Source: Psammoneis japonica (taxonomy: Eukaryota). Taken from it: a DNA stretch of 64,000 nucleotides. Positions 1 to 64,000 of this stretch are shown here, one piece after another. Below the pieces are notes generated by a model. It worked only from the letters and a program-made list of their open reading frames with translations. It ran no database searches and had not been told where the DNA came from. Every line of letters starts with the position of its first letter. Positions within the stretch are counted from its first letter, which is position 1. The position numbers were made by a program, and so were the translations under genes. The DNA lies in the NCBI GenBank assembly GCA_008632985.1, contig QPGO01000135.1:124001-188000 (forward strand), written 5' to 3'.

Positions 1-300
1 GCAGATTTCTACGAGATTTTTTTGACATTTTGTGTCATTTTGTGGCACACTCATTGAGCAATCCGTCCAACTGCTTTTGACATTTTTTGTTGCAGCGCGA
101 TTCTACAATGTCTTAAGAATCATGTGGGGCAGGCACTTTTGCAAAAACATCGAGTGGCAAGAGGCACAATTGTGCCACAAACTTGGCCGTTTGTTTGATG
201 TTGAAGACAAATGTGTCCACTGATTAAATTCTCGCACTGCGGAGCTCACAAGCAGAATTCCACGGGCCCAATCTCACACGGAGTCCCACCCAGGGCTGGA
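1..300 (+). mobile_element. MITE family copy, left end outside the window
   Basis: Matches 1555-1855 and ends in the family right terminus gtcccacccagggctgga. Confidence 0.8.
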
Positions 301-302
301 AG

Positions 303-490
303 GTGCCAGATGAGCACTTGGCTGAAGACAGGTTGCAACTTCTTGATTCAGCAGATGAGCATCTCACTCACTCTGCTCATCTGATGCAAAATTGGTTGGC
401 TGCAGTGAAGCCCATGTTCAAGTCCAGCTTGTGGGAAGCCAAACGGCTGGCCATGAGAAGCACGTGTTCTGTTGCCAGCTGCTTTGGTTT
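303..490 (+). pseudogene. 3' end fragment of a non-LTR (LINE-like) ORF2
   Basis: HLAEDRLQLLDSADEHLTHS...NWLAAVKPMFKSS is homologous to 34457-34600, which continues the LINE fragment at 18935-19877. Confidence 0.6.
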
Positions 491-836
491 GCAGAATTCT
501 GCGTGCGAGCTCCGCAGCACAAGAGTTTGATTGATGGACACATTTGTCTTCAACATCAAATGAACGGCCAAGTTTGTGGTGCAATTGAACCTCTTGCCAC
601 TCAACGTTTTTGCAAATGCGCCTGCCCCATGCGATTCTCAAGACATTGTAGAATCGTGCTGCAACAAAAAATGTCAAAAGTTTTTGGACAGATCACTCAA
701 CAAGTGTGCCGTTAAATGACACAAAATGTCGAAAAAATCACGTGGAAATCTGTGTGCGCGTCATGCGACGTGATTCAAAAAACCGTTGATGTCACAGTTC
801 AGCAGTGCGAGGTCCCACCCAGACCTGGAACGCATC
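491..836 (-). mobile_element. MITE family copy, inverted, one end truncated
   Basis: Reverse complement of 1470-1815; terminus ctggaacgcatc ends at 836. Confidence 0.8.
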
Positions 837-876
837 AGCAGTTCAAAAACACCACCCTTGAAGCCAGCAATGACTC

Positions 877-1323
877 TGCAGCATGCATGCAGACAAAAGG
901 TTATTTTTGTCACGCCCTTTGTGACATTTAAAGGCTGCAACACGTCGCTGTGATGCATTGACTCTCATCAGTGGCTGCATGTTGCACTCCTCCCCATGTG
1001 TCACGCGTCCATGCGGCTCTTTGCCAACGTGTGCTGACACTGCACAGTTTTGGCAGAACAGTGTGGGCACGTGCAAAGGAACACACAGAACTGCACAGAG
1101 TTTCATGCGTTCGACAGTGATCAACGTTGCTGCAGACAACTCCCACTCAGGGTTTCGAACCCCTGGCCTCCTGCCCAATGGTTGCGATGAACCACTCCAC
1201 TGTGAATTCACAATGCAGCATGCATGCAGACAAAAGGTCATTTTTGTCACACCCTTTGTGACATTTAAAGGCTGCAACACTTCGCCGTGATACATTGACT
1301 CTTGTTGGCAGCTGCACTTTGCA
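877..1323 (-). mobile_element. TRIM (miniature LTR element, probably gypsy-derived)
   Basis: 110-bp direct repeats 877-986 and 1214-1323 with TG...CA ends; 4-bp TSD ACTC (873-876, 1324-1327); minus-strand PPT catggggaggag abutting the LTR; empty site with a single actc at about 3724. Confidence 0.8.
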
Positions 1324-1469
1324 ACTCCTCTGTTGTTTCAGACCTGGCGGCTCCTCTCTGAAGTGTCTTCGTTGCTTTGCTTCACTCTCCATCTGCATCT
1401 TTCACAGTGCACTTCATTTCTGCATTTTGTTTCTCTTTCAGTTTTGCAAACATTCGCCAAAGTTTGCTT

Positions 1470-2196
1470 GACGCGTTCCAGGTCTAGGTGGGACCTCGCA
1501 CTGCTGAACTGTGACATCGACAGTTTTTTGAATCACGTCGCATGTCGCGCATGCAGATTTCTGTGTGATTTTTTCAACATTTTGTGTCATTTTACGGTGC
1601 ACTTGTTGAGCAATCCATCCAAAAACTTTTGACATTTGTTGTCACAGCGCGATTCTACAATGTCTTAAGAATCGCGCAGGGCAGGTGCATTTGCAAAAAC
1701 GTCGAGTGGCAAGAGGCACAATTGCACCACAAACTTGGCCGTTTGTTTGATGTTGAAGACAAATGTGTCCATCAATTAAATTCTCGTGCTACGGAGCTCG
1801 CACGCAGAATTCTGCGGGCCCAATGTCACACGGAGTCCCACCTGGGGCTGGAATGCGTCGGTTTTTTGAATCGCGTCGCATGTCGCGCATGTGCATTTCT
1901 ACGTGATTTTGGTGAAATTTTGCATCATTTTATGGTGCAATTATCAGGCGATCCATTCAACAACTTTTAATGGTTTTTTCTTCCACGCCATTCTCGAGTG
2001 TCTCAAGAATGGCGTGGGGCAGGTGCGTTGTCCAAAACTTCGAGTGCGAACAGAGACACATGTGCTGCAAACTTGGCCGTTTGTTTTATGTCGAAGACAA
2101 ACACATCCATCAACCAGAGTGCGAACTGCAGAGCTCGCACGCAGAATTCTACGGGGCAAATGTCACAAAAAGTCCCACCCAGGACTGGAGCCCGTC
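1470..2196 (+). mobile_element. Two adjacent MITE copies (1470-1859 complete; 1860-2196 lacking left end)
   Basis: TIRs gacgcgttccaggtctaggtgggac ... gtcccacctggggctggaatgcgtc; the second copy ends ctggagcccgtc. Confidence 0.8.
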
Positions 2197-2590
2197 GCCC
2201 CGCACTTGGGCTGAGCTCGGCATTTCACCCATTTCCCATTTCCCAAATCCTTTTCCCTTCTTAGCTTCACTTTCCCTTCAGCCTCACCCCCTGGCCTTTG
2301 CCCGCTGTCCACTGCCCGAACCCTGTCAAGTTGACACACAATTTTTTGTTTGGCGGTGTCTGTTTTTTTTGTCAGTTTGTCTGTGGGTGTGTCATTTCCA
2401 TGCTGACCTGACATTGATTTTTGTGCTTGGCAGTGTCATGTTGTCCGTGCTCCCCTTTCCCATTTCCTTTTCCCCGCTTTCATTTGTCATGTGAGGGGAG
2501 GCTTGGTCAGCTGGGCTGCCCGGCTGTTTCAGCACTCAAATGCCAAGCATGCCAGCAGCCATCGAGGCCGGCCACATGATGATCGTCGCT

Positions 2591-2985
2591 GACGTGCTCC
2601 AGCTCTGGGTGGGACCTCGCGCTGCTGAACTGTGACACAATTGTTTTTTGTCACCCGTCGCATGTTTCACACGTACATTTCTGTGTGTTCCATTATAAAA
2701 AATTGTTCCACACTGCCTGTTTTGCGAAGCCAAAGGCTTTCTGTTGTCTACACTTGCGTCAATGAAAATGCGCAGGTGTGTTCTTCAATGTCCAAAGAAC
2801 ACACCCGGGCATGCTGCAAAGAATGTGCTTCAAGTGTGGAGGAGGAGATGCGTTTGCAAAATTGCCTCTTTTTCTGTTGGCGATCATTCACACATCCATT
2901 GCTCAACAATTTTGCTGCGGAGCTCGCACGCAGAATTCTGCAGGCCCAATGTCACAAAAAGTCCCACCTGGGACTGGAACCCGTC
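2591..2985 (+). mobile_element. MITE family copy (second internal subtype)
   Basis: gacgtgctccagctctgggtgggac ... gtcccacctgggactggaacccgtc; interior matches 17028-17825 and 44416-44763. Confidence 0.8.
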
Positions 2986-3687
2986 CATTGCAGCCTCTGC
3001 TGCAGTCAAGCAGCTGCGCCCCGGTGACATTGCAGAAGATCCGGTGCTGATGGTTTGGTTCCTGGACAGAGCGGCCCATCCACATGACTTTCTTGAGTTG
3101 GCAAAAACATGTTGGTCCTCAAGCCCTCCGCGGCATGGAGCACAAGTTCTCTGCTCAAGCGGGCCAACTCATCAAGCCCCGCTCCGTGATCAGACCACTC
3201 GATGGGAACCCGCACTTTTCCTTTGCACTCCCAGCCCCAAGTGTTGTGCCCCCTTGAAAGGAGCAACCTTTTTGTCAGGTGCCGTTCGCAGTGTGGGGTG
3301 GGCAAGAGGTGGTGCGCTGTCCGATCCAGACGCGCCAGCTTCTGTGGCTGCCAGGCTTCTTGGAGTTGTCCATCAGCCGACTGGGCAAGCCAACAGAGCC
3401 AACTCTCATGCAAGGACTCCAACAAACACTGGCAGCTGCAGCAACCACCCACGTGATCACTGTTTTGTTTTGTGCCAAGGCGCCATCGCACTGCACTGCC
3501 CCAGTTGATCCAGGGCAGCAGAGCATCGGAGCTCACTGCCATTCCCGCCCCGGCCTCAATCACTTCCGCCACTTCAGGCTTTTTATCTGCCCAGATGACT
3601 TCATTCCTGTGCTGCTCAGCCAGGGGCACCATGGAGCTCTGGTTTTCTGCTGTCAAGCCCTGAAAATGTTTGGCGACGCCAACAAAC

Positions 3688-4240
3688 AGCAGCTCAACAA
3701 CGCCGCCCTTGAAGCCAGCGATGACTCTTCTGTTGTTTCAGACCTGCCAGCTCCTCTCTGAAGTGCCCTCCTTGCTTTGCTGCACTCTCCATCTGCATCT
3801 TTCACAGCGCACTTCACTTTTGCATTTTGTTTCTCTCTTTCAGTTTTGTGCTTGAGCTGAGTTCTGCACTTTGCCTGTTTCCCATTTCCCATTTCCTTTT
3901 CCCTTCTTGGCTTTGCCTTCCCTTCAGCCTCACCTTTTGGCCTTTGCCTGCTGTCCGCTGCCCAAACCCAGTCAAATTGACACACAATTTTTTGTTTGGT
4001 GGTGTCATGTTTTTTGTCAGTTTGTCTGTGGGTGTGTCATTTCCATGCTGACCTGACATTGATTTTTGTGCTTGGCGGTGTCATGTTGTCCGTGCTCCCC
4101 TTTCCCATTTCGTTTTCCCCGCTCCCATTTGTCATGTGAAGGGAGGCTTGATTGGCTGGGCTGCCTGGTTGTTTCAGCATTCAAGTGCCAAGCATGGCAG
4201 CGGCCGTCAAGGCTGGCCACATGATGGTCATCATTGCTGG
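3688..4240 (+). repeat. Uninterrupted copy of the segment split by TRIM/MITE insertions at 837-2590
   Basis: Matches 837-876, 1324-1446 and about 2205-2590 collinearly. Confidence 0.75.
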
Positions 4241-4869
4241 CGGGGCTTGAGCAAGATTTCAGTTTGTCACACACAATCATGTGTGCTCTTGGCTCCAGGC
4301 TCGTCACATGAACGCAAATTGCTTTTGAGCCACATGGCTCACAAGAACAACAACAGAGGCGCTGACATCACGACACCAGTCTTTCGGCTCCTGCAACAGT
4401 CTCTGCGCGGGATGTGTTTCATCCCAGGTGGGTCGCGCGCACGCGAGGGTGTGACATTTCACCTGTCTGTTTTCCGTCACCGTGCATTTTGTACAAGGAA
4501 ATCTTCTCATGCTTTCCCCCGATTTGTCGAATCTTCTTTCCTCAGATCTGTTCATTTTCAATGATGGGCCGTCTTCTTTGTGCATTGGAGGTTGCGGACA
4601 AGAAGAGAAAGATCTTCCAGCATCATTTTTTTGGCAAGATGCTGACATGCAATGGCGTGCCGTTGTTTTCGCTTCGACTTTGAGCCACAGTTTTGCTTCT
4701 TCTTTAATCGCGCCTGACTCTTTTGAAAGAATGCCCGCATTCTCCATTGTGCGAAGAAAGTCGCCGAAGAAAGAATGAAGTCACAGCTGCTTTTGTTTCA
4801 TGAGAAAATCCGGGTGAACTGACTCGCGTGTCATTTTGTGCGCATGGTGGCTGTTGTGCACTGTTGTGC

Positions 4870-7800
4870 TTGCCATGCCCAAACAGAGCAAGAGAGACAA
4901 GCAAAACAAAGAGCGGAAGGAATTCTTTTGGGCAGCAAGATCTTCAGCCATCTTGATTGGCGACAAGAGCAATCAGAGTGACAGCAGCAGCACCGCAAAA
5001 GCGGCTCCACCCGCCAAGTGTTGCAATGGATTGGCATCAGCACCCAATTTGCCTCCACCGGATGTGCAAAAGGACCCTGGAAACAGATCTTCTAGACCCG
5101 AGGTCCCCCCTGAAGTTAGCTCATTGGGCTTTGTGGATGCCGTCCTTTCAATGAGGGGTTCAATGCAAGAACAAGCGGCTGTGTTGAACAAAAATGTCGT
5201 CACCTTGAATGAAGCACTGAACGACCCAAGGCTTGGTCAGCACATGGCTCTCATTTCTCCTGGTTGGACAAGAATCAGCTCACAGAAGCACAGTCAATGT
5301 GGACAATGCCGCAACCAATGTGCAAATCTGTCAACACCAGGCATGTCCACCCGGTTGACGAGCTTGCACATTTCCACCACAAGCCAGACTGCATGAGTGG
5401 GAAACCGCGGCAGGGAAGCAATGTGCCGTTGGCAGCAAGGAAGGCAAAGAACAGTGCAAAGCAGAACACAGTGGCCGCAGTGCTGGATGCAGGTGACATT
5501 GAGCAGCAAAGACTGGCGTTGCGGGATGCCCTTGCAGATCCAAAAATAAGAACTGTGTCATCATCAATGGGCTTCAATTCTGAGGAGGTAAAAGCCGGTC
5601 TGCAAATGATCCGCAGCACCAGGCAACTCTTGCAAGCTACAAGGGACACAAACAAGAAGAACTGCCGACCAACTGATGACCGACATGCCATTGTCAACAG
5701 TGCTGGACTTGCTGCAGTGAGCACTCCGCCAGAATCCCCAGAAGAAGAAGCAGCACGAGTTGGGAAGGAAAGGATGGGTGTGTCGCACAGAGGATTGAGT
5801 GGCAGCTTGGCCTTCCCCGCTCCGCTGGTGTTCGATTGTTTGCCCAATCGGAAAAGAAGAGGAAGGGAGCAAAGGCTGGGGATGAACAATCGCGCGAACT
5901 GGTGGACAAAAAGAAACCCTGGTCGAAGTGCTCTGATGAGCTTGCAGGCAGCTTGAGAGAATGGATTCTTAAAAACAGATGTGTTCGCGACTCTCCTCTT
6001 AAAAATGACACCATTGGGAAGCGGGGCCACAAAGGTGAGATGCTCTTGTTTGGCTCGGTTTAATGCAAGTGCGACTTGATCAAAAAGCAGAAATCTTTTT
6101 GTACAAACACAGGGGTTGTCGAAAGGAAAGATGATGGCAAGCCCGAGGAAATCCAAAGAAAGCTCCTGACCATGTCACCATGAGAACTCCACAATGAAAT
6201 GACAAGAGAGCCACACAATGGCGGATTTGAAGGAGCTCGTGACAACAGTGGTGACGTGTTCATCACTGAGATGGCCCCAAGAAAATGTGCGCCAAACTGG
6301 GTGACAAGAATGACAAAACGGCACAGGCAAATGTGCGGTTGCAAAGTTTGTGTCATGTGCAATGACATGCAGGAATCGTTGAACCACTGGTGCGGCAGAA
6401 AGGTGAAACGGCTCATGGATGAAGCGGAGTCGATGGACCAAGGTCCAAACAAAAGGACTCAGCTGGAAGAGGTGGCGCAGCACAAGGCTGATGTGTTGCA
6501 CGAAGATGGCACACCTCTTCACAAAAGAGCATGGGATGCTGCCGAAACTGTTGGTTGTGGCAACGTCAAAGGGAAGTCGCATCCTCACTTTGGCTGTGTT
6601 CTAAGAAGATGCCCAAATTGTCCTGCATGCCAAGTCCCCAATGCAGAGGAGGGCTGCAATGAACACATCAGCTGCAATGTGTTCTCGACATTTAAGAAAT
6701 GCAACATCCACAGTGCCGGCCACATTGGCAAGGGAACCAACAAATGCGAGGCACGTGAGCAGATGACCGATGACGAAAAGGCGAAGCTCAAGAAAAGGCC
6801 TGAGGTTGCCTCCAGAAAGTTGAGGGCAAGAGTCACCAAGCTGATGAAGGATTTCGTGGCAAAAAAGGGAACATGTGCCAAGCATCTCGACAAAATGTTT
6901 TGCCACAAGACACACGCAATCATGCTTGGGACCAATGGATGTGTCAAGTCGAGAAAGGAGAAAGCGGATGGGGACGATGGAGTTGTCCTGACAGGGCGCG
7001 ATCAAGCTGAGCACATGATGCCGGCCTGATGGAGAGACAATGTCTGAACGATTCGGAAACGATCGAAACGTGTCAATGGAAGGAGCCACCATCAACTTTA
7101 AGGTCCAAGGCGAGACAGAATGCAAGACAGCACCTCACTCACATTTGTCTGATGAGAAATGGCAGGATGCGCCACCGTGTGTGAGAACATCAAAGCCATG
7201 CTTGAGGATCTTGTTCAAAGGGGTGAAATGACACAAGCAAAAATGAAGAAAATGTTGGACCACGTGGATGGATGCTGTTGCCAGTGCCGAAGTGGCCCGT
7301 TTTGTTCCTTCTCTCGCTGCTGGCCTTCGAGCACAAAATCACACACGACCAAGCAGTGTCCGCTCCTGGGCATGGCAAGGGCATGGTGGACTCACAGAAT
7401 GGAGTGGACAAGACAGAACTGGACAAGTTCTTCACTTGTCTTGTGTCCCCACCCGAGGCTGTAGAAGATGACAAAAAGAACATCAGCATTCATGCCATGG
7501 ATAGAGAAGAGTGTTCTAGCCTGGCTGCTGCAGCTTTTGAGGTCTTGAGTGATCCGGACAGGGCATGCAGAGTCATCAGTCACTCGTGTTGAAGGAAGCG
7601 TCACATGGACAGGAAAATGAAAGAGTGATGATGCATTCTTTGGCCTGAGGATCTCGCGAAGTGGCGCGACCTGAAGATGAAAGCATTGGGATTTGACAAG
7701 GGTGAGTGCAATGGTTTGCTGGCACACCACAATCTGGTTGCGGACTTCATGCTGGGACCGAGCACCACAGTGGTGCAAAGGATTCCTTGCAGCTGCCGGG

Positions 7801-8586
7801 GTGCCAAGAAAGGAAGTCCGCGAGTGGGTGAGTGACGTTGACACAAAGGACCAACCTCGGCATGCAGGGCCTTGCAAAGAATGCATTTTATGGCCAATCT
7901 TCAAGATCGATGACACAAAAGGATGGAATGATTACAAGACATTGACTTTCAGGAGGAACAAGGACTGTGACGAAGAGGACGTAAATGACGCGAATGCTGT
8001 TGCCTTGAGAGGCCTTGGCAAGACTCTGTCGGAGAGCGTGTCGGATGGTGGGCACGGAGCATGTGAAGTTTCCAGAGATGATGATTGTGACTGCCACCTG
8101 GTGAGGTGGGCAGGAACACCATGGAAAGTTGAAGAGGACAGCGACATTACAGTGGGTGAGAATGCAGTTAGGGTGACCAAGGGCGAGTGGGTGTGCAAGG
8201 CAGAGTGGTTTTACAAAGTGCCTGGCACACGGCTCTGGTTTGCACCTTCTACAGAGTGTTGCATTGTTCGCATGCAACAAGTTCTTGCTGCAGATCTCCA
8301 TCTTGTGCCGATGGACAACAGCAATGCATTGCCTGGGCTTCCAAAGCAAACTGCGGTGGAGGCGACAAGGTTGGGAGCCATGCGGGTTCAGGATGAAGAC
8401 CATGACTCGATGATGGATGAAAGAGAGAGGAGGGATGGGGTGGACTTTGAAGAGATTGATGAGGAAGCGGAAGATGATGCAGGTGATGAGCATGGGAGCA
8501 ACGACGAAGCAGATGTTGATGAAGAAGATGGGGCGAGTAAACAAGTGGAACGACTTTTCGCTACAATGCAATGGCCTGCAAGTTAG
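4870..8586 (+). pseudogene. Frameshifted DDD-type DNA transposase (possibly Sola-like) with Cys-rich N-terminal region
   Basis: Consecutive ORF pieces carry RDQAEH (DF/YAE-like), HVDGCCCQCRS (DGCxxQYxS-like) and APGHGKGMVDSQNGVDK (HGKxxxD) motifs. Superfamily assignment is from recall and unverified. Confidence 0.6.
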
Positions 8587-8688
8587 GACAGAAAACAACA
8601 TGACGGACAAAGTGAGAAATGCATCAGGCAAAGAAATGCAATGCCAAACCACAACCAAAACACACAGCAAGCAGCAATGCAATTGAAA

Positions 8689-11600
8689 TGTAAGATGTGT
8701 GACAACAATGCAGCAGAGCAATGGCCTGAAAGACACAGAACAGAAAGACGCAAGGAGAAAAGTGAGCAAAGAATCAGTTGCAAACCACAAACGACAATCA
8801 AGGCTTTCATCACATGACAAACTGACAATGGCGATTGAAATTTTAGACCTTGCACCAATGCTGCAGCAAAGCACCGGCCGACAGATGCAGAAAAAAAAAC
8901 ACTGGGAAAAAAAGTGAGAAAATGCGTCAGCAAGGAGAAGAATCCATTGCAAACCACAAAAGAAAGCACCTCTTTGATTGTAAGACAAAGCTACAACACC
9001 AACGCAATGGCCAAGCAAAAAAAATTGGTGTGGCTAGCCAGTGGAAAAGGCGATTGAACGATGCATCTTGCAGAATCGTTCGGTGCAATCCGATTGCAAA
9101 CAAAAAGACAGCTGTCATGCCTCGTGTCCGAAGCACCTGCAATGTGCCTCAGCACCAACACAAATGCAAAAAGAAACAAGATGAGCAGATCAAGCGTGTT
9201 TGTGTTGGCACATTGCCAAGTTTTTACCTTTGGAGACTCCATGGCTGTTGACTGTGTGACAAAGGAATTCACAGCTCTGGCGGTGTTGTGTCATGTTGCA
9301 TGGGGGCCGATTGTAAGATTTGCAAATGCGAAACACAGAAGTGTGTGTCGACAACTGAGAGCTCGATTTTTCTACACAACTGCAGCATTCAAAGTGCGTC
9401 ACACATAGAAACACGTAGAAAACCTCGTGTTTTGTCCCCGAGTGACCCACCTGGAATGAAAACACATCCAAGGCATTGCGACAGGACCCGGAAAATTTTT
9501 ACTTGTGCGAAGGCTGTTGGAAGGCGAAGGCCTTTGCTGCCTTTGAGAATGCAGCGGATGCACAGAACGCAGAGCCGTTGGCATCTTTCACGCATTGTGT
9601 GGCTGCTGTTCTCAAAAGCACACTCCCGGAAAGGGCTGCACTCACTTAGAAGCACCGCACAAGGCGTTTTGTGAGGGAGCGGTCAACAGTCAAAATTCGT
9701 GAGCATGTTGCTCATGCAATGGAGATGAACGCACATGTCACAAAATTTCCGCCTGTGGAAGATGGTGGAGCTGCACCACAATCGCTGCCAGATGACGAGC
9801 TGACAGATGTGGCTGAACATGGCATCCCACGCTCTTGGCAGCACGAGCTGAAAATCCAAGGATGGAATCCTTTGGCCCGCACCATGGCAGAACTCATGGT
9901 GTTCTGTGAACGTGTCAAGAAGACAGAAGCATCAGAGAAGCCGATCATCACTGACCCTCAGAAAAATGACCCGATCCCACAGAAAAAGCAGGGCAGTCGT
10001 GAACGCCGTCACTCGCACGATTTGACAGCAGAAGCGGAAAAGCAAACCGTGGTGATGTCAGATGGAAAACGTGGTCATGTGTGCATGCTGCATGGTGCAT
10101 GCAACCACACTGCTGATGATTGCTGGTCTTTGAAACGGCAGATCAAGAAACTCAAGACTGCGGGTGCAGATGGATCCGAGCACAGGAATGCATGCAAGCG
10201 CAGCACTGACGTGCGCAAGGAAGAACTCAACATTTGTAAGATGTGCAACAACAATGCAGCAGAGCAACGGCCTGAAAGACACAGAACAGAAAGACGCAAG
10301 GAGAAAAGTGAGCAAAGAATCAGTTGCAAACCACAAACGACAATCAAGGCTTTCATCACATGACAAACTGACAATGGCGATTGAAATTTTAGACCTTGCA
10401 CCAATGCTGCAGCAAAGCACCGGCCCGACAGATGCAGAAAAAAAAAACACTGGGAAAAAAGTGAGAAAATGCGTCAGCAAGGAAAAGAATCCGTTGCAAA
10501 CCGCAAAAGAAAGCACCTCTTTGATTGCAAGACAAAGCTGCAACACCAACGTAATGGCCAAGCAAAAAAAATTGGTGTGGCCAGCCAGTGGAAAAGGCGA
10601 TTGAACGATGCATCTTGCAGAATCGTTCGGTGCAATCCGATTGCAAACAAAAAGACAGCTGTCATGCCTCGTGTCCAAAGCACCCACAATGTGCCTCAGC
10701 ACCAACACAAATGCAAAAAGAAACAAGATGAGCAGATCAAGCGTGTTTGTGTTGGCACATTGCCAAGTTTTTACCTTTGGAGACTCCATGGCTGTTGACT
10801 GTGTGACAAAGGAATTCACAGCTCTGGCGGTGTTGTGTCATGTTGCATGGGGGCCAATTGTAAGATTTGCAAATGCGAAACACAGAAGTGTGTGTCGACA
10901 ACTGAGAGCTCGATTTTTCTACACAACTGCAGCATTCAAAGTGCGTCACATGTAGAAACACGTAGAAAACCTCGTGTTTTGTCCCCGAGTGACCCACCTG
11001 GAATGAAAACACATCCAAGGCATTGCGACAGGACCCGGAAAATTTTTGCTTGTGCGAAGGCTGTTGGAAGGCGAAGGCCTTTGCTGCCTTTGAGAATGCA
11101 GCGGGTGCACAGAACACAGAGCCGTTGGCATCTTTCACGCATTGTGTGGCTGCTGTTCTCAAAAGCACACTCCCGGAAAGGGCTGCACTCACTTAGAAGC
11201 ACCGCACAAGGCGTTTTGTGAGGGAGTGGTCAACAGTCAAAATTCGTGAGCATGTTGCTCATGCAATGGAGATGAACGCGCATGTCACAAAATTTCCGCC
11301 TGTGGAAGATGGTGGAGCTGCACCACAATCGCTGCCAGATGACAAGCTGACAGATGTGGCTGAACATGGCATCCCACGCTCTTGGCAGCACGAGCTGAAA
11401 ATCCAAGGATGGAATCCTTTGGCCCACACCATGGCAGAACTCATGGTGTTCTGTGAACGTGTCAAGAAGACAGAAGCATCAGAGAAGCCGATCATCACTG
11501 ACCCTCAGAAAAATGACCCGATCCCACAGAAAAAGCGGGGCAGTCATGAATGCCATCACTCGCACGATTTGACAGCAGAAGCGGAAAAGCAAACCGTGGT

Positions 11601-37480: not shown

Positions 37481-37506
37481 GGGTGTCCGTTGAGTTTTGA
37501 CCCAAA

Positions 37507-52850: not shown

Positions 52851-53240
52851 TGAGCCCTCAGAAATTTTCTTGGTTTACTTGGGAGGAAGATGTCAAGACA
52901 ATTGTTCATGCAGCATGTGCACATCTCTTGATGTGCGTTCAAGAAGATGCACATGTGACTCTGTCTGTCATTCTCTGTTGTTCTTTTGACATCTGCTGTT
53001 CTCTGGTCATGAGCACAATGTGACATGCACCTCCTCCAAAGAATCACATCAGGGAGAGAAAGGAATGAGATGCCGCGCATTTGTGGTCTCAAGGCAGCTT
53101 CCTTTTTGGATGATGACAGTGCCATTGGACTTTGTTTCATGCATTTCACGTGAGCCAAGTTGGTGCAAGGTGAGTTTGGATCAATGAGGGTTGTCATCAT
53201 GGAGAGAAACAAGGTCTCCTACTTTGGAGTCATGGTTGAG

Positions 53241-54199
53241 TCACCAAGAGTTCTCACATGCATCATCTGCTTGAGCTTGTTGTTGGTGGCAAGCACAGAT
53301 GGTTGGCCAGTGGATGTTGCATTGTGAGGGAAGGATCATGTCACATCCAAAAGCAAGTTGGCCAGCAGAGGCTTGCATGACAGTGTGCACCATCGAATTT
53401 GCTGCCCAAGTTGCCAAGGCTGTTGTGGCATTCCACGGATTCAGTTGATTGAACGCATCAGGATCATCAACTTGTTGGGCCTGTGTGCAGCTCCACAAAA
53501 CATTGTGGGTCCATTCAAGCAGTGAATTTGATTGTGGGTTCTGTGCTGTCACAGGCTTGGACTTGTTCCCATGAGAAACCAGTGGTTCTTGAAATTCAAC
53601 GCCTGCAAATTCCGCACTGTTGCCATGTGTGAAACAGACCAGGTGCAGAAAATTGCATGACCATGCTTGGTTGAATGCTCTGGCTGTTTCCAGAGCTGAA
53701 ACTGTGGAAATTTGTTCCGCTCCAAAACAGCAAGCAGCCATGTCCACCATTGCAAGGGCAGTCAGTGCCAAACTTTGGTGGTTGGCACTGGAGCCAGCAG
53801 CAAAGGCAATTGTTCTAATGGTGTGGACTGCTGCCTGTGACCTGGGGTCAATCTGAACGGCTTGCATGTCCTTGAGAGGTGTCTTTCCACACACTCTGTG
53901 GCTCTCTTTTGACCTCAGACAGGTCTGGCATTGACCCATCTTGGTCTTGACATCTCGGGTCAAACCCTGCCAAGAATGGCAGTGCTGTCTGAAGGTCTTT
54001 TCCATCCGTTGGATGCCTGGATGGCACAAATTGACATGACACCAATTTAACAAAGGTGCTTGTAGAGCTGCAGGAATGACAATCTTGTCCTTAAAAGGGC
54101 TGAACAAAGTTGTCCATCCTGCACCATGCAACTGCAGTCGGACAATTTCTTCCAACTCAGGTCGGTTTGAGCAAGTTGCAACACTTCTTTTGTGCACAG
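53241..54199 (-). pseudogene. Ty3/gypsy integrase remnant
   Basis: IVIP...WCHVNLCHPG...CQTC zinc finger, GNSAEF, NPQSNSLLE, VHTVMQASAGQLAFG. Confidence 0.85.
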
Positions 54200-57100
54200 T
54201 GACAGAAATTGAAGATGACTGGGTGGAAGAAAACAACAACTCCTTGCTGCTGTCTAAATGGCAGATGAGTCTCCATGCAGAGACTGTTGCAGGAGCCGAA
54301 AGACTGGTGTCGTTGATGTCGGCACTGCTGTCATCATTCTTGTGAGCTGTGTGGCTCAAAAGCAAACCACATTGCGCAACGAGCACGGAACCAAGAGCAC
54401 ACACAATTGCATGTGACAAACTAAAATCTTGTTCACATCCTGTCACTCCCCAGTTTGCTTGAGGGGTCAACAGCAACAGATGCAAGGTCAGATTGGTTGA
54501 AAGCCTCGGGATCGAAGTTCCAAAACATCAGAGGATGAAGGAGGTTCCAGACTTGGGAGTAACCCCAATGCTTGCTGAGGATGTCAGCTGGGTTGCAGGA
54601 ACCTTTGATGAAATGAAACTCAAGGAAACCGGAAGCAATCGCCTCACACACATGATGGAATGAGAGGGCAGTGTAACTTGGATTGTGGGATGGCAGCACT
54701 GTCCACAACTGACTTGTTGTCCCCAAACATGCAACATGTTTCACGAATGGGGATGCCAAGGTAATGCAAAGCAATGCATGGATCAATGATCTGCTCAACG
54801 CATGTCCTTGTGGCAACAAACTCAGATCCATGCGCAGCAGTCTTGACTGTTGCTTGTTTCTTGGAGAACCAATCAGCTGGGAACTTGTTGAGAAAATGGA
54901 GGATGCCAGTGACAGAGCATCCAGTGAGCATGCAATGGAACAAGTTTGTGTCAATGTAGTGTGTTGTGGTGATGAACTTGCCAAGCAGCTCTTCTGCCTC
55001 CCATGCACCGATTGGGCCCAGTCATGCACGGGCTTGGGAAGGTCTGAATGGTCGGGCTCTTTGGTGTGCACTTGGAGGGCACCATGATGCATCTTGGAGA
55101 GGAATCCGCAGATGCATTTGGCATGGTCTGGGTGGCCTTGATGGGGTGCTGCATGGAAGCCAGACAGAGACATGACAGCCAAAGTGGTGTCAATGCAATC
55201 AATGGATGCGGCCCATTGCAGGGAACCAACAAAGGATTGGAATTGGTGGATGCCCTCCAGTTTGAGTAATTTGGAGGTGTTGAGCTCAGGGTGGTCTCCC
55301 TTGTCAAGGGGGGAAAGCACATCAGTGCAGGGCTTTTCCCCAAAGAGGCATGCACAGCTGTCAACCATGCGCTCAATGTGCTTGTGAGGAGCAAGGCACA
55401 GGGTGCCGTCTGGATCATGGGTGAAGTCACAACCAAGATGGAACTGCAATGGTCCAGTGCCCTTGAGCATGAACTTGTGCTTCTCCATGAGAGTGTCTGC
55501 AAAAGCCTGGGGTTCCTTCATGGCAAAGGCCAGGTCGTCCACATGCACTGCCATGCACTCGCAGTGGTCACCATTCCCACACAGCCAGATGTCGGGTTTG
55601 GCTTTGCACGGGAAAAAACTTCAGCATGCAAGCAATTGGCAAAGTGTTCATGTCATCTGAGGCCAGAGCTGCGGAGTCCGTGTGAGGCCTTGTGGATGAC
55701 AAGGGTGTGTCCTTCCAGCTCGCCAAGTTCAGGGCCTGCTGCAATGTGCAGCTTCTCCTTGATCACAGCTTTGAGACAGGCGTTCCCAATGTCGGCAGCC
55801 CAAGTCTCTAGTTTGTTGAGTTTGGCCAGGAAGATCATCATTCGCAGGCCACAGAGAGACACTGCTCCAGAATGGACACTGTCGACAGGTGCATCTGTGA
55901 GGTGTCCATTGGCAACAAGCCTTGCTTTGTGCCGTTCGTCATGTTTGACGTCACAGACGAGATGCTCCCAAATCTTCTTGTGTCCTGGTGGAGCACTGGA
56001 ATCCTTGCAATGTCCACAGTTGTGGAAGACCTTTTGCTCATCAAGCTGAGTCATCTTGAGGTCCGTTGCATCTCCCCACTTGCGGTTGCCGTTGCGCTCA
56101 TTGAGGGCCAAGGCATGCTTGCAGTCCTGGGGCACTTCACACCCGCACTTGCAGCGTGGTGCAGTGCAAAAGGAGCCCAACTTGGCTTGATTGGCCATGC
56201 GAAACAGCTTCTTCTGATGCAGAGCTATCTTGCGGAAGCATTTCCAGCTGTCGGTCTTGAGCAAACCGTGTTTGCGTGCGCAAATGGCACATGTGACCAC
56301 ATGTGATGGGGTCGTCCTTGGCAATGATGGCAAGGGGTTCAGATGTGATCTCCCCATTCTCCCATTCAAGCATGACGTTGTAGCTTGAGCTTTTCCAAGA
56401 GGGATCATGGGGTCACAGTGGTCCTTCATGCGATGCGATGCATCGGAACTTTCAGAGGGCAGTGTCTTTGTCTTCTTGCTTGATGTGGTGCATGATGTCA
56501 TTGTGGGCCAGGACTTTCTCATGTTCATCATTGTTGATGGAGCAAATGAACTTGACCAGTTTGGGTTTGTCTCTGATTTTCCAGTCATGGTCCTCAATGG
56601 CTTTGATGATGCAAGCTCTGTGGCATTGTCTGTCTTCTTGTGGCTTCATGAGGAAGGTGTGTCCGATGATGTCCTTGGGTTAAAGACTGGCATTTTGGGC
56701 ATCCTGATTGCCTCCCCCTCTGATGAATCCGGTGAATCCTCGGAGTTGTGTCAGGATTTGATGATGGGTTCAGCAAATTCCTTTTCTGGAGGATCAAGAT
56801 GCAGGTTGGGAGTGGATGTTTCACAGGCGGAATGCACGTTCAAGCGGCAGAGAATCTTCTGAGTGTCATCAAAAAGAATCTTGAATGTCATGTGATGACC
56901 AACGTGTTTGGCAACACCAAGGAAGCCACCATGCAACTCGCGTGATTCAGATGGCCAGTCAGAGTCATTGAGGTGGCAGCACATGGGTTCCCACCATTGA
57001 AAGTGCAGGAGCAGGCTGATGTTGTGGGTAGAGCCGGACAGCACCTTGGTGGGGTTACACCAGCGAAGCTTGGCAGACGCTGTGTGGTTGAGCACAAACA

Positions 57101-57380
57101 CATGCACATCATGGCCAGCAGCCATGTGCAGCCTGGAGATCCAAAGCAATCCATGATGGTGTTGGCCATGGTCTTCACAGTTTGGTGGCAGTGTTCAGCA
57201 AAATTCTGGTGCTGTTGGTGGGGCTCGCTTTGCCAACTGGAGATGAAGAGGGCACGAAGGATGCCGAGAACTTTGTTGCTGATCTCAATCTGAGCACGGT
57301 GGCTGATGAGCTTGGACGGGGCACCATGATTGCGGACAATGTTGTCTTCGAGCATGTTGACAAATTCCTTGTCAATTTTG
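54200..57380 (-). mobile_element. Old 5'-truncated relative of copia family A (IN-RT-RH and 3' LTR 54200-54445)
   Basis: Collinear with 45094-48020; same PPT; RT motif decayed to AVHVDDL. Confidence 0.9.
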
Positions 57381-58269
57381 GTTCTGTTGGGAAGTGCAAT
57401 GCCTCTCATGGAGCTGCTTGAGGAAATGAAGCACAGAGGCTTTCCAGTGTGCACGACTCCTCAAGCACAAGACCCATGATGTGCTCCAGGAGATCCACGC
57501 AACTGAGACCATCACAACTGGCCATCAAGCAAGTGACTCACCTTGTGCAAAGGGTCTGCACAGGATGTGTGCAGCACTGAGAGTGAACAGTTCCACGTGA
57601 GGACTCAAGCTCTCTGTTTCTCACTGTTGCGCATGCACCTGCTCTGTGCAAAACAGTCTCAAAATTTTTCACACAACACAGAAAATCTCTGTCTCCACAA
57701 TCCAGGTGCTTGTGTCTTGTTCCTGCACAGGTCACAGCAACATTGCTCCCAGCAAGTGCAAGAACACCCTTCAATTGACCAACCAAAACTGTCAGCTGTG
57801 CTGCTGAGAAGAATGGATGCAACAAAATGTCATTTTCCTGCTCTCCATGGCTGTTTGGTTAAGAGGGCAGCAGAAAGCAAAGAACATGAAAATGTTGCTG
57901 GTGCAGCAAAGAATGTGTGCAAACACTTTGCAGAACTTTTGCTGCCCCTCAACAATGGCAGTGATGAACCACAAGTGCTGCCAAAGAATGAGAGAATTGA
58001 TCTCCTTGACTGCAGCATGCCACATGCTTCTCAGTTCAAGAATGGAACTCCAACATTCAACCCGCTTGACACAAATGCTGCAGATGTCACGTTTCATGAG
58101 CAATTCAAGAATTTTGTTCTAAAATTCATTCATTGCAGATGAGAGAGAAACTGACACTGATGACTGCCAAGATGGCAGCCAACTGCACAATTCTTGCGCT
58201 GTTTAGATGCGCGCCAAATGGCCAAGACAAAAGTGTCACATGAAAAGACTTGAGACAGCTTGCATCTGG

Positions 58270-59250
58270 GTGGCCACTTGTGAAAGGTGGAGCTTGAGAA
58301 TGGAGTCAAGGCATGGGGTTTAAGGTCTTCTTAGCACACCCAGGTGGTGGTCAAGAACATGAAAACTTGCTTGGCGTCAAGGGGTGAGAAGCTGCCAGCC
58401 AAGGCCCCAACTCCTCTCAGCAGCTTGCATCATCCTGAACTTGACATGGGAACTGTCACCATTGGATGCAGCCCACTGCCAGTTGCTCATTGGCATCCCA
58501 CATTGGATGGTTGAGCTTGGTCAACATCTGTCTTGAAGCCTCAATGATGTCCTTGCACTTGGCATCACCACAAGAGAGACACCTCGAACAGGTGCACCAT
58601 GTCTTTGCACACCTCAAAAAGTGACACAACACAGAGATGGCATTTGATCCCAGCAACCCTGTTGTTGACAAAGCATTGTTTGTGCAACAGGACTGGACAA
58701 CCTCCAAGTTTGGCCTTGCTGTGTGGGATGAGATGTCTGCCAACATGCCTCAAGCTAGAGGTCTTGGTGTGACTGTGCAAGCCTTTGTGGATGCAAACCA
58801 TGCAGGCGACTCATGGTTTCCTTGAGTGTCTTAACTCTTCCCCTGTGCACTGGATGAGAAGCAGACAAGTGTCAAGACAAGCTCGTTTGGGTCCAAGTTC
58901 ACCAGCATGAAGCAATGCATGGAGTGCATTCACGGGCTTTGGTGCAAGCTCTGGATGATGGGAATTCTGGTCATTGGATCGGCTTGTGTCATGGGGGATG
59001 ACCAGTCTGTCCTGGCAAACACCTCTGTCCCTGACTCAACGTTGAAGAAGAAATTCCATGGTCTGGCACACCACTTTGTCTGTGAGGGTGGAGCACATGT
59101 TGAGTGGGAGACGGCGCATGTCAATGTGCACCTGACTCCCAGCAATCTGCTGACCAAGATGCTTCCATCTGGAGAAAAATGCAATCAGTTCATGGGAATG
59201 TTTCTGCACCATCTTGGTGGGAAGGTGGAGCGGGCTGTGGCTGGCTGAAC
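58270..59250 (+). pseudogene. Copia RT/RNase H remnant (family D)
   Basis: AFVDANHAGD, LWCKLWMMGI, GDDQSVLAN, TLKKK, SNLLTK. Confidence 0.8.
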
Positions 59251-59614
59251 CACCTTCCAAAGCAGAGGGTTTCATCTGGAGAGTTCCCTGCCAGAGATGT
59301 GGGTTTTTGTTTGGACTTTCTCATTTGGTGGATGTGTTTGTTTGAAATTTACCATCAAATGATGTTGATGAGTCCCTTTGTTGGCAATCTAGCTTGACAA
59401 TGTAGCCAAGTCTAGATGGAGGGGAGTGTTTTAGTTTTTCCATTGTTGGATGGACAAAGTGACTGATGCATTTGTTGGCTCGGTTCTTGGAAAGTGAGAC
59501 TTTGTGACAATGTCTTTTACATTTTTTGAGAACATTGGTGGCAGACCGAGAGCTCCACTTGAGGATTGTCTCACAATTTGAACAGATCACGTTACATTGC
59601 TGATTTGTTCTGTC

Positions 59615-61043
59615 AATGCACTTTCAGCAGGAGACCACCCTGAGCTTGACACCAGCAAACTGCTTGGCCTTGATTGCATTTGTCAACTCCAGTCCTTGGT
59701 TGGTTCTCTGCAATGAGCTGCATTGCTCAGTCACATCAACATCACTGTGGCTGTCATGTTTTTCTCTGGCTTCCACATGGCACCCTGTCAAGGCCACCTG
59801 GATTGCACCAAACTTGTCTGCAGATGCTTGTTCAAGACACAACATGGTGCCCTGTGTGTGTGTGTGCCAAGGAACCTGACTGTTCAGACCTTCCCAAGCT
59901 CATGTGCAACTGGGCTCACACCACATGTGGTGAATTGGGAAAACTGATTCCCAAAGATGCACCCATGCCTCTTGGCCAGTTCATCACCATGACTCACTGT
60001 GTTGATGTGAACTTGTTTCATTGCATGCTTGCTGGTCACTCAGTGACAGGATTTGAACAGGATTTAGGTGCACGCGAAATGTCGCGCGCTGTTTAGTTTA
60101 CCGTGCACAGTTTTGTGTGCTTTAGTTCCGCGCGTTCGCGCGCGATGTAGTTTGCTTTCGAGCCACAAGGCTCACAAGAATAACAACAGCAGCCAGATTA
60201 TACCGACTTACACGTCTTTCGGCTCCTGTGACGGTCTCTGAGTGGAGACTCATCTGCTGTTTAGACAGCAGTGAGGAGTTGTTGTTTGAATTCTTGCCAT
60301 TTGCCTTCAATTTCTGTCACTCAGTCACAGGCATCATTCCTTTCCTTGATGAGTTCCCAGCTGATTGGTTCTCCAAGAAACAAGCCACAGTCCAGACTGC
60401 AACTTGTGGATCCAAGTTTGTTGCCATCAGGATGTGCTAGATCATTGATCTGCCCACCACATTGAGTCACCTCAGCATCCTGATTGTTGACACCTGTTGC
60501 ATCTTTGGGGACAACAAGTTGGATGTGGACAGTGCCACTGTCTCCCACACTCCAAGTTGCACAAGTGACACACTGCCCTCTTGTTCCATGGTGTGCCTGT
60601 GAGGTGATTGCCTCAAGGTCCCTTGAGTGTCACTTCATTGAAGGTTCCTGCAATCCCACTGACATTTTCAGCAAGCACTGGGGTTGCTCACAGATTTGGA
60701 CCCTCCTCCGTCCTCTCACATTTTGGAACTTTGATCCCAAGGCCTTTGGCCAATCTGATCTCCAATCTGTCTCTGTGGCTTCCTCAAGAAAACTGGGAAG
60801 TGACAGGATTTGAACAAGATTTTAGTTTGTTGCACACAGTTGTGTGTGCTCTCAGTTCTGCTCATGACTGGTGATGCAGTTTGTTCTTGGGCCAGATGGC
60901 TCACAAGAACACAACAGCAGTGCAAATGTCATGACGCATGTCTTTCAGCTCATGCAACTGTCTCTGCACAGAGAATCATCTGCCATTCAGCAGTGAGGAG
61001 TCATCATTTTCTTCCACCCATTTCCCCTTCATTTTCTCTGTCA
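59615..61043 (+). mobile_element. Old family A relative: RT end, RNase H and 3' LTR (60801-61043)
   Basis: CVDVNLFHCMLAGHSVTG, FPADWFSKKQATV, NPTDIFSKHWG; PPT aactgggaag followed by tgacaggattt. Confidence 0.85.
60044..60319 (+). mobile_element. Solo LTR of the young family A element
   Basis: 276 bp, reverse complement of 51648-51923; perfect TSD CTCAG (60039-60043, 60320-60324); removing it restores the host RNase H frame. Confidence 0.95.
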
Positions 61044-61574
61044 TTTTGTTGCTTTGTGTTCTGCAGCAACAAAGAAACATGTAACTGGCTCAAATCAATG
61101 CTGTCTCAATGGGTGGATTTGCCCAGTTTCACAAATGCCAACCTGGCCAGCTCTTGCAGATCACTTTGCATGGTGCACACCATGAATTTGTCACATGCAA
61201 GCAGAGCACCTTCTGCCCTTTAGAAGCAGCACAAGACAACACACAAATGGCGCCATGAAGCACAGCTTCCAATTGCCAAGGTCAAAGCCACTTGCACAAT
61301 GGAAAAGAAACAACAGGTGTGGGTGTGCACATCAGTAAAAAAACACAAATTTCAAGTGCTGGATGCAAGCTGATTCAAAAGCATGCCATTGTTGGTGAGG
61401 AGGAGGAAAAGAAAATTCAAACTCAAGGCTCCCTCTCTCTTGTGTGCTGTCAAACATCATCCAATGTGCCCCCTTTCCTGCAGTGCTGAGTTTTCCACCC
61501 TGGCCAGGCTTTGTGAAAAGAAGCAAAGGGGTGGCAATCAATGGGTTGATTGCCCTCTGTTGCTCTCTTGCTCT

Positions 61575-62056
61575 GCTTCCTCTGGTGACTGATGCACTCT
61601 TGGTTGAGCTCTCAGGTGGGTTGTGGCACTGGCCATGAACACCAGACCTCAAGCTGGAGACCAAAATCTGGGAACCCGGATTTGGAACTCTAGCCAGAGA
61701 GCTGCAAAGGGTGGGTGGCATGGGCTGCAAGCAAAAAACTTGCTCTCTTGTCTCATCAATGTGCAGTGCAACATTGATGAAAAAGAGGAGTGAGCTTGAT
61801 GCAGCTCGGATGGTCTTGGCAGACTCATGCACTGCTTCCACAACACATGCTGCATGGCAGAAGCAGATTGTGAAAACAACCCCCTGCTTGCACAAGGGGG
61901 AGGCACAGACCACTGTCTCTCATTGGTCTCTGACTCTGTTTCCTCCAGTGACTTGTGCACTCTTGGTTGAGATCTCTGGTGGGTTGTGGCACAGGCCACA
62001 AACACCAGACCTGAAGCCAGAGACCCAAATCCAGGAACCCGGATTTGGAGCTCTAG
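61575..62056 (+). repeat. About 120-bp direct repeat pair (61575-61695, 61938-62056)
   Basis: gcactcttggttgag...ggaacccggatttgga.ctctag occurs twice. Confidence 0.75.
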
Positions 62057-62399
62057 AGCCACCACTCCACAGGGAGACAAGAGGCCACACACAAGAGAGA
62101 GGGAGAAAGTCAAGGAGAAGCAAGAAGAGAGGCAAGGTGAAGGAGGAAAGGCAAGTGGAAGTGGCCAAAGCATGTGGCACTGTGAGAGCGGCAACACTTG
62201 GCCTGGAGACCGGGCCAGGGAGAGAAGAAAATGAGTCAGGTGTGAATGCCAAGCAAGGGGAAGAAGCATGTTGTGAAGCCACACTGGCAGGGCTGAGAGA
62301 CAGTCCATGGGATTGGGCGACAGACCCCACCAGTTGCTCTGAAGACATGCCAACTGCCCAATGACCGCAAAGGTAAAAGAAAAACCAAGGCTGAGTGTC

Positions 62400-64000
62400 A
62401 AGGAGTGCACCAATCATGGTTTGCACCATTGGGGAGCTGACAGTGCAGAAACAGTCATGCAAAGTAAAACTTGACAGCATCTGAGTTCCAGTGGAGACAA
62501 CAGGCCGCATCTTTGATGGGGCCCCCAGCATTGAAGAGAGCAACAGCTGCTGTTGCATGGTTGGGGTGGGAAACCAGGCATTTGATGTGCTGACGCAAGC
62601 AGTGGGAGGGATCCAGATGTGCTGCTTTGCAGGCATTGCACAAGAAGCTGACACATGTTTGCTTTGAAGGAAGGTGTGCAAGCCTGATGGCGAGTTCTGA
62701 AAGGCTCCTGGGGGCTCATCCAGTGGGATTCTGAGTCTCCAAGTGTGACCAATGATGGCTTGTGTGGCTTTCACGGGGCAGAAAAAACCATCAAGGCAGC
62801 GGCAACATCAAATTGTGAAGTTCTCCTTGCTCTTGTCATGGCAAAAGAGAAGGTGGAGTTCTGTGGCTTCTTCAGTGAGCTTGTGATGGGGAGGCAGGGC
62901 TGTGAGATTGGAGGTGTAGAATGTGAAGTCCAATGTGATGATTGCAAAGGGCACTCTTCCATTCCCTGGCTTCAGGGTTCCAAGGGAGCATGGCAAACAC
63001 TTGACCTTTTGGGATCTTGCTCTGAGCACGCTCTGCAAGGCAGAAACTGGTGAAAAGGGAAAAATTCCCAATCTGTGATGGCAGCAAAAAGATCCAGAAA
63101 AGTGGCTTCTTGTGAGGCCAGCTGGGCTTGGCACTTGAGTTCCATGTGCCCATGCATCTCCCCAGAGATGGAATGTTTTTTGTCATGCTTTTTTCACCAG
63201 GTCCAGTGCTGGTGGATGATTTCACCAAAGAAGGGAAGCAACTGTGACTTCCCATTGAGTTCTTGGCAGATTGGAGCATCGATGCCAAAGTGATGCTTCA
63301 ACCAGGTGCCTGCAATGTTGAGACAGCTGACAAGGGAGTCTTTGGCCAGGATGGTTGCATTGTGGAGGGACTCACCCTCAGCAAGGCTGAGCAGGTGACA
63401 GCTGAGAATGGGGATGGTCTGGGTGGCCATTGGTTTTGCAAGACTGATGCTCAAGCCAGCACGCAAAGTGACCAGCGTGAGACTCAAAAGTTGTGTCATT
63501 TGCACTGCGGACATGTCCTTGGTCAAGTCTTGTCCAACAAGCAATGAAATCACATTGCCAAGCTCAGAGGGGACATGGCATGCTTGCACTGTTGAGAGCC
63601 AGAAGCATTGCTCTGCAATGGATGCCCAAGTTGGGTGGTCCGCTGGGTGCAAGAGAGTGTCCGCCTCATCATTGGTGAGGCCAGCTGTGAGGCTTGCTGG
63701 TCGGGGATCCCTGAAAATCAGTGGCAAACAGAAGAGCATTGAGAAAGTGAGCAAGGCACTGGAGAATGGGGCGGTGTGTACAACTTGTGCATTCAACCAT
63801 GAGAGCGTGCTTGTGTTGTCCAAGCAAGCATGCAGCATCTGTCCACCAACTCACACCGCACCATGCTGCCAGAAAATCAGGGCCATGCAGAGGTTGATGA
63901 TGATTGCAATGAACTCCAGCACGTTGATGTGGAGCCCCTTTTTGTCAATGAGGGGCTCCTGCATGCTCCTTCATTGGGAAGCCCCATTTCACAAGGTTGG
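62400..64000 (-). pseudogene. DIRS/Ngaro-like retroelement remnant: RNase H followed by probable tyrosine recombinase
   Basis: HINVLEF...DNTSTLSW...GLTNDEAD RNase H pattern; downstream LFCHDKSKEN and PVKA segments resemble the YR core. Confidence 0.55.

Follow-up and report, generated by a model that had tools for sequence, protein, structure and literature searches.

What process can strip a single dinucleotide from tens of kilobases of retrotransposon DNA? The question is raised by 64,000 nucleotides of the Psammoneis japonica genome (GenBank assembly GCA_008632985.1, contig QPGO01000135.1, positions 124,001 to 188,000 of the forward strand), called here the window and numbered from its first letter, in which one young copia element lies among decayed retrotransposons and the dinucleotide TpA is nearly absent. 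To our knowledge, hypermutation defence against mobile DNA has so far been a matter of cytosine chemistry, namely fungal repeat-induced point mutation (RIP) and APOBEC in animals. An earlier note on this DNA, made from its letters alone, had proposed a new defence process that would act as the reverse of RIP, a two-stranded hypermutation turning the TpA of repeats into TpG or CpA.

We find that integrated mobile DNA probably does undergo transition hypermutation at TpA, with a signature as in Bigelowiella natans. The idea that such a process was undescribed did not survive our literature search: a 2026 bioRxiv preprint by Mettrop et al. (10.64898/2026.01.13.699255) has measured de novo TpA to TpG/CpA hypermutation in that species. 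The search returned this preprint alone, the other papers on transposon mutation among the listed hits dealing with RIP, APOBEC or ADAR. The window is therefore a further case of the kind just described, and no new kind. What it adds is a view of retrotransposon families at saturation, a proof from long terminal repeats (LTRs) that the change follows integration, a measure of its speed relative to CpG decay, and a bias in the flanking bases.

TpA depletion in the window

The window holds 616 TA dinucleotides, an observed/expected ratio (O/E) of 0.158; 200 mononucleotide shuffles gave a mean of 3907 (standard deviation 44, minimum 3791). CA (1.654) and TG (1.615) are in excess, CG is reduced (0.506), and base composition is balanced at about 50% GC. 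Along the window, TA O/E stays between 0.02 and 0.25 in every 1-kb bin except those of 44001-52000, where it ranges from 0.22 to 0.95 and CpG is back at about 1. The near-absence of TpA and the abundance of TG and CA that the earlier note saw in decayed elements thus hold, the exception being the young copia at 44818-51923. TA O/E is 0.13 across 1-44700, and the old DNA as a whole shows 0.12 for TA, 1.16 for AA, 1.15 for TT, 0.92 for AT and 1.04 for TC.

These values bear on one rival explanation, an error-prone, polymerase-eta-like repair synthesis that acts at WA motifs (W, A or T) in heterochromatin. Polymerase eta does cause A-to-G changes at WA motifs, TA included, but neither AA nor TT is depleted in the old DNA, and the change is restricted to TA, where it runs near completion. 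We regard this route as very improbable.

The same depletion reshapes the reading frames. The stop triplets TAA and TAG number 220 and 197, against 1503 for TGA, and the two strands together contain 162 stop-free frames of at least 120 amino acids, often overlapping, 33 of which reach at least 250. These long frames are not genes: they are open because TAA and TAG are nearly lost and TGA is the only stop left. Gene prediction on such DNA would return many false genes, and decayed domains are largely missed by standard domain models.

A young copia element in TpA-poor DNA

The exception at 44818-51923 is a complete element embedded in TA-free DNA, with a sharp boundary at 51923/51924. It and the two relatives used in the comparisons below have the following parts.

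44818-51923, minus strand: young complete copia, with LTRs, target-site duplication and two long frames
44818..45093, minus strand: the young copia's 3' LTR (276 nt), with TG...CA ends
45044..47620, minus strand: frame for reverse transcriptase (RT) and RNase H, 859 amino acids; RVT_2 E 6.7e-26, homologs at 51-72% identity
47548..50826, minus strand: upstream frame, 1093 amino acids; tblastn places P0021 residues 8-322 and 433-675 on 49302-47608
51648..51923, minus strand: the young copia's 5' LTR (276 nt), with an abrupt switch to TA-free DNA from 51924
44813-44817 and 51924-51928: 5-bp target-site duplication, AGGCA
54200..57373, minus strand: older copy of the young copia's family, 74% DNA identity to the young element
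60044..60319, minus strand: solo LTR from this family, at about 95% identity to the young LTRs

The 1093-amino-acid frame resembles outgroup polyproteins and is on that ground probably the gag-protease-integrase part, and no Pfam family, integrase core included, was recovered in it at E<=0.001. Among the 120 database matches listed, the best proteins reach at most 72% identity to the young RT; for a seemingly abundant family, this hints that the proteins of the genome are absent from that database. In the older copy most TAs have gone to TG or CA and most CpGs are also lost; the solo LTR is flanked by a 5-bp duplication, CTCAG, and carries TA to CA/TG changes of its own.

Even the young element is short of TpA in its coding part, where TA O/E is 0.29-0.41 against a median of 0.72 in 80 related metagenome loci (5th to 95th percentile 0.51-1.00, minimum 0.31). 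Its LTR (leader plus LTR) stands at 1.04.

Direction of the change

We polarised the change on tyrosine codons, which read TAY (Y, pyrimidine; R, purine), with 60 of 120 listed outgroup copia proteins, at 51-72% identity. A codon was taken as conserved when it aligned to at least 10 outgroup proteins of which at least 80% agreed on the residue. The old copies offer 97 conserved Tyr sites, and these now read TGY (Cys) at 34, CAY (His) at 19 and TAY at only 7, with 37 other codons. In the young copy, TAY is found at 14 of 26 such sites, with 5 Cys, 4 His and 3 other. In the old copies, control residues were kept far more often than Tyr, at 44/80 (Phe), 50/97 (His), 36/59 (Asn) and 81/152 (Asp) sites, and in the young copy at 23/25, 22/22, 15/16 and 40/47, respectively. 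Across the 80 related metagenome loci, 1769 such sites were read, with 1600 Tyr, 11 Cys and 19 His; the loci L058 and L070 account for 21 of these 30 replacements, and the other 78 show 9 in 1731.

Two further comparisons give the same sense. When the young copia is set against older copies, a young TA lies opposite an old TG 46 times and an old CA 41 times, and the reverse sense occurs 5 times (87 pairs against 5, in a count that pools overlapping matches and includes the LTRs twice). When four LTR copies are aligned, TA, TG and CA co-occur at the variable sites, and because no CG occurs there, TA is their only single-step ancestor. The direction TA to TG/CA claimed in the earlier note is confirmed.

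The note had also pointed to motifs in which a normally invariant Tyr reads Cys or His, and six-frame translation located every one of them:

46442-46453, 22285-22296, 55773-55784 and 29772-29783: NACL
46343-46354 and 42836-42847: LHGL
22200-22211: LCGL
55534-55545: HVDD
17861-17872: CADD
16603-16626: KPCHARPH
18395-18412: NCTTTE

YVDD is still intact at three places (42994, 46202 and 22044).

Timing, strands and CpG decay

When an element inserts, its two LTRs have the same sequence. Those of the young copia now differ at 6 bases, 5 of which fall at four TA sites: three read TA in one LTR and TG or CA in the other, one is an adjacent pair with TG against CA, and the remaining difference is CG against TG. 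Counted as events, these are 5 of 34 TA site-copies, 1 of 40 CpG site-copies and 0 of 404 other base-copies (Fisher p 5e-6). Because two LTRs of a single insert differ at TA sites, the change followed integration and took place on DNA.

The two outcomes are nearly equal (46 TG to 41 CA), which bears out the claim of two-strandedness and argues against an origin on an RNA strand or a transcription strand. A transcription bias had been considered for the excess of Cys over His at Tyr sites (34:19) and was rejected on the DNA-level ratio of 46:41; Cys outnumbers His because Tyr codons are themselves TAY.

CpG decay is a separate, slower process that is also present. In the young copy, Arg codons of the type CGN are kept at 46 of 48 sites while Tyr has already given way to Cys or His at 9 of 26 conserved codons; in the old copies CGN has mostly gone to CAY, TGY, CAA or TGG, and a young CG faces an old TG or CA 202 times, with 24 cases of the reverse. 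TpA loss in the young element is well ahead of both CpG decay and background change.

These observations uphold the statement that neither deamination of 5-methylcytosine nor RIP could cause the loss of TpA. Deamination at CpG gives the same products, TpG and CpA, and has been active in the window's old elements, but it cannot remove TpA and is slower in the young copy. RIP, in ascomycetes, changes C to T mostly at CpA, creates TpA and lowers GC. It resembles the process seen here as a transition hypermutation of integrated repeats in a dinucleotide context, on both strands, with destruction of reading frames; its direction is opposite, for in the window TpA is destroyed and GC rises, with the O/E values of TA, CA and TG given above.

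Read support and other copies of the family

Reads of this DNA come from one public study, in the form of k-mer contigs. Contigs at depth 40-77 reproduce the TA-free, apparently single-copy parts of the window with 2-6 differences per 165-838 bases; as the TA-poor letters recur in a public run, they are unlikely to be an artefact of base calling. Over the young copia, the summed contig depth exceeds this by hundreds to thousands of times, which, summed depth being no copy number, suggests a high-copy family. For 38001-48000 no RNA data set was listed, which says nothing about expression.

The reads help to weigh a second rival, in which the pattern would not be a mutation of chromosomal DNA at all: either modified bases were systematically miscalled in a long-read assembly, or reverse transcription fixed an ADAR-type editing of retroelement RNA. 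Were TA to carry a modification, a miscall specific to it could be imagined, but it would have to spare the adjoining young LTR, where TA is normal, and to recur in the contigs at depth 40-77. ADAR prefers a 5' U; it also favours a 3' G, and TAG and TAA contexts, which are those that survive best here. RNA editing is further contradicted by the TA-site differences between the LTRs of one integrated element and by the equal effect on both strands. Taken together, these accounts seem to us scarcely credible.

Other copies of the family carry the change at places where the window's copy does not. In run X1, A>G or T>C accounts for 284 of 469 variant places. Among the best 40 of 473 differences, TA in the window against CA or TG elsewhere occurs 16 times and the reverse 3 times. 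At four Tyr codons (three of them outgroup-conserved, the fourth a position where outgroups have either Tyr or Phe) and at a Val codon that is conserved, the mutated form (TGY or GCA) makes up 52-71% of summed depth, a share that is not a copy count; other copies are therefore mutated where the window copy is intact.

The conversion of Tyr to Cys or His also appears to be visible elsewhere in public data. At conserved Tyr sites, locus L058 has 6 Tyr, 3 Cys and 9 His (of 18) and L070 has 11, 6 and 3 (of 20), and none of the other 78 loci has a TA O/E as low as theirs (0.33 and 0.31). Database proteins P0100 (9 Tyr, 6 Cys and 3 His of 19) and P0096 (8, 5 and 5 of 22) behave likewise, against 23 Cys or His in 2469 for the remaining 118. 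All four belong to other copia lineages and share 58-65% identity with the RT of the window.

Flanking bases

The old DNA retains 427 TAs, which are no random set: most are YTAR, and RTAY is nearly gone. Counts by tetranucleotide in old DNA and in the young copia, with the enrichment or depletion relative to the young copia, are as follows.

TTAA: old 70, young copia 7, x4.1
CTAA/TTAG: old 89, young copia 18, x2.1
CTAG: old 44, young copia 10, x1.8
ATAC/GTAT: old 10, young copia 20, x0.21
GTAC: old 9, young copia 19, x0.20
ATAT: old 1, young copia 13, x0.03

In the read comparison, again within the best 40 of 473 differences, the mutated strand reads TAY at 15 of 16 polymorphic TA sites, where 55% was expected (p 0.0015). 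Together these data suggest that a pyrimidine 3' of the mutated A (TAY) is favoured about threefold, as a preference and no rule. The base before Tyr-to-His sites, a purine at 11 and a pyrimidine at 8 of 19, adds nothing to this. The bias is a first hint of the rule that any candidate enzyme must reproduce.

The same bias admits a reading in which thymine is the target. A dioxygenase of the TET/JBP type would make 5-hydroxymethyluracil (5hmU), or a further oxidised base, at TpA in silenced transposons; the product would mispair with G and give T to C, provided that 5hmU or 5-formyluracil is mutagenic at such a rate. T to C at RTA is the exact complement of A to G at TAY, so that sequence cannot separate the two. 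Dinoflagellates offer a parallel: most of their 5hmU lies on transposable elements, which it silences, and in Crypthecodinium cohnii it reportedly replaces T preferentially in TA and TC (PMC11572971), while in Breviolum minutum it is enriched over repeats, copia included (PMC11071213). On this route TC should change too, but TC is unaffected in the window's old DNA (O/E 1.04), and base-resolution mapping in B. minutum found 5hmU without a sequence motif (PMC11071213). The mark is described as one of epigenetic silencing, and the passages of the two papers that were examined describe no mutational outcome (PMC11572971, PMC11071213). We consider a thymine target rather unlikely, though of the rival explanations it is the one we take most seriously.

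Comparison with Bigelowiella natans

According to the available parts of the preprint (10.64898/2026.01.13.699255), 230 of 231 mutations that arose in two viral regions of B. natans mutation-accumulation lines were A to G or T to C, all of those at TpA, at a rate near 6e-7 per site and generation, compared with 3.5e-10 elsewhere. The regions are a single-copy giant-virus insert and a virophage insert, and the callable genome omitted sites at more than twice the average depth. Long-term traces were defined by Rho_TpA of at most 0.43 combined with a Rho_CpA+TpG of at least 1.52 in at least three clustered 1-kb windows; TpA-poor coding sequences were enriched for reverse transcriptase and DDE domains; and an ADAT2-like adenine deaminase was proposed.

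Both of these Rho thresholds are passed by 56 of the 64 1-kb bins of our window. As far as the preprint text goes, the two cases share A:T to G:C transitions confined to TpA (in the window's LTR pair, 5 of 6 differing bases lie at TA sites, the sixth being CpG to TpG) and a long-term depletion of TpA with enrichment of CpA+TpG. They differ in four ways. The targets in the window are LTR retrotransposons, one of them seemingly high-copy; depletion is near saturation over about 57 kb, whereas the nucleocytoplasmic large DNA virus region of B. natans stands at Rho 0.45; CpG decay accompanies it; and the loss of RTAY with retention of YTAR is seen in the window, whereas the preprint text makes statements on dinucleotides only. 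In comparison with RIP, it may be noted that a region hit in B. natans is single-copy.

A third rival invokes no defence: a genome-wide, context-dependent bias from TpA to TpG/CpA, in which old transposons have simply reached equilibrium and TAs are kept only by selection or youth, as with CpG decay in vertebrates. It would accommodate the fact that the window is TA-poor everywhere outside the young element, with or without a recognisable transposon domain, and that depletion follows age (1.04 in the young LTR, 0.29-0.41 in young coding sequence and 0.13 in old DNA). What speaks against it is that, in the preprint, the B. natans process runs 1000-fold faster in the two viral regions than elsewhere, while genome-wide TpA is near normal (10.64898/2026.01.13.699255). 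Moreover, with about 15% of TA site-copies mutated in the young LTR pair and none of 404 others, a genome-wide process would put a heavy load on the Tyr codons and the TAA and TAG stops of genes. We judge such a bias improbable.

Proposed mechanism

Under the favoured reading, TpA hypermutation of integrated mobile DNA, elements would integrate and their chromosomal DNA would then be hypermutated at TpA, the A:T pair going to G:C on either strand to yield TpG or CpA. The end state would be a TA O/E of about 0.02-0.2, with Tyr codons turned into Cys or His and TAA and TAG stops lost. The process may be a defence that targets mobile or silenced DNA.

As to the chemistry, adenine may be deaminated to inosine by a TadA/ADAT2-like enzyme, which we rank first among the candidates because the mutated A follows a pyrimidine and seems to prefer a following one. 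The resemblance is one of sequence context alone: such enzymes convert A to inosine, read as G, after a pyrimidine. For DNA-editing TadA variants, YAC and YAY>YAR preferences are reported (PMC12528748), which recall the TAY bias. The natural enzymes, in contrast, act on tRNA.

Several points weigh against this account as a whole. The window comparison spans retrotransposon DNA only, with no single-copy host DNA, and T to C through thymine modification would give the same pattern as adenine deamination. The flanking preference does not appear in the polarised test of the young against the older copy (20/51 favoured against 15/49, p 0.41), which is near saturation and has little power, and in the LTR alignment, as we read it, roughly a third of the events lie on the TAR strand. 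As for the reads, the run may come from the assembly's own sample, which makes it a less than fully independent check on the base calls; the 40 read differences are the best supported of 473 and no random sample; and shares of depth do not equal counts of copies.

Beyond this, we put forward tentatively, as possible but short of probable, a wider reading: a RIP-like but chemically opposite defence, present in more than one protist lineage, in which a TadA/ADAT2-type deaminase guided to integrated mobile DNA would act, by preference at TAY, on either strand.

Element content of the window

The window is a retrotransposon graveyard. A Pfam scan (E<=0.001) of 140 of the 162 stop-to-stop open reading frames (ORFs) of at least 120 amino acids recovered RVT_2, RVT_1/RT_RNaseH, Integrase_H2C2 and a gag-type aspartyl protease, and nothing else. 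The remnants of long interspersed nuclear elements, DNA transposases and tyrosine recombinases that the earlier note listed did not appear among these ORFs at that threshold, although heavy decay may hide them. No tRNA, no Rfam family at gathering score and no Pfam domain foreign to transposable elements was found within the window. The old elements are distributed as follows.

1..44817, no strand assigned: old decayed retrotransposon mosaic, TpA almost absent and CpG depleted (composition, tblastn, Pfam)
12443..13195, plus strand: remnant of a gag-type aspartyl protease, gypsy-like, decayed (PF13975, E 7.1e-05)
16603..18433, plus strand: gypsy-type RT/RNase H, decayed, with former Tyr positions in KPCHARPH, CADD and NCTTTE (RT_RNaseH_2 E 7.1e-17 and RVT_1 E 5.9e-07, both on 17669-18433)
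about 20337-22878, 23431-25287 and 28307-32313, minus strand, and 41009-44029, plus strand: copia fragments (tblastn)
39926..44029, plus strand: old copia copy (RVT_2 E 2e-07; tblastn 41009-41488, 42152-42997 and 43328-44029)
51924..64000, no strand assigned: old TA-free, CpG-poor retrotransposon DNA, TA O/E 0.02-0.18 per kb
53244-54527: Integrase_H2C2 (Pfam E 2.3e-08)
54523-57379, minus strand, and 58487-60723, plus strand: copia fragments in the right-hand old DNA (tblastn)

The old copia copy at 39926..44029 contains a stop-free frame of 1041 amino acids, which is open only because TAA and TAG were lost.

Tandem duplications occur in the old DNA at 28355-29231 (period 479, 92% matches) and 17026-17807 (period 390, 85% matches). 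The copies of these two differ by 1 and 4 changes of the TA type, 15 and 40 transitions outside TA and CpG, and 8 and 6 transversions, respectively; so few TA-type differences fit with TA having already been exhausted. Immediately left of the young copia, 44001-44817 has an intermediate TA O/E of 0.50 and a raised summed read depth over 44005-44671, and could be another, middle-aged repeat. Purines strongly predominate on the plus strand of 6001-12000 (GC skew reaching +0.15, AT skew +0.21 to +0.23), where TG exceeds CA and no domain was recognised; this strand may be the sense one of a retroelement that has decayed. Two short arrays of 30-nt units, at 35617-35725 and 37370-37478, lie about 1.75 kb apart, and their units look mutually reverse-complementary; an unclassified element could have its termini here.

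Implications

If a TpA-specific system of A:T to G:C change does exist, it would be a second, chemically distinct route of defence against mobile DNA, and its enzyme would be a natural editor of adenine (or thymine) in DNA. Should the wider, tentative reading be true, the Tyr codons and TA signals of transposons and proviruses would be erased soon after insertion, the window would be the first view of this process at saturation on LTR retrotransposons, and the two loci and two proteins of other copia lineages (L058, L070, P0096 and P0100) would hint at its spread in nature. For the retrotransposons themselves, the window means that whole families can be driven to near-total loss of TpA.

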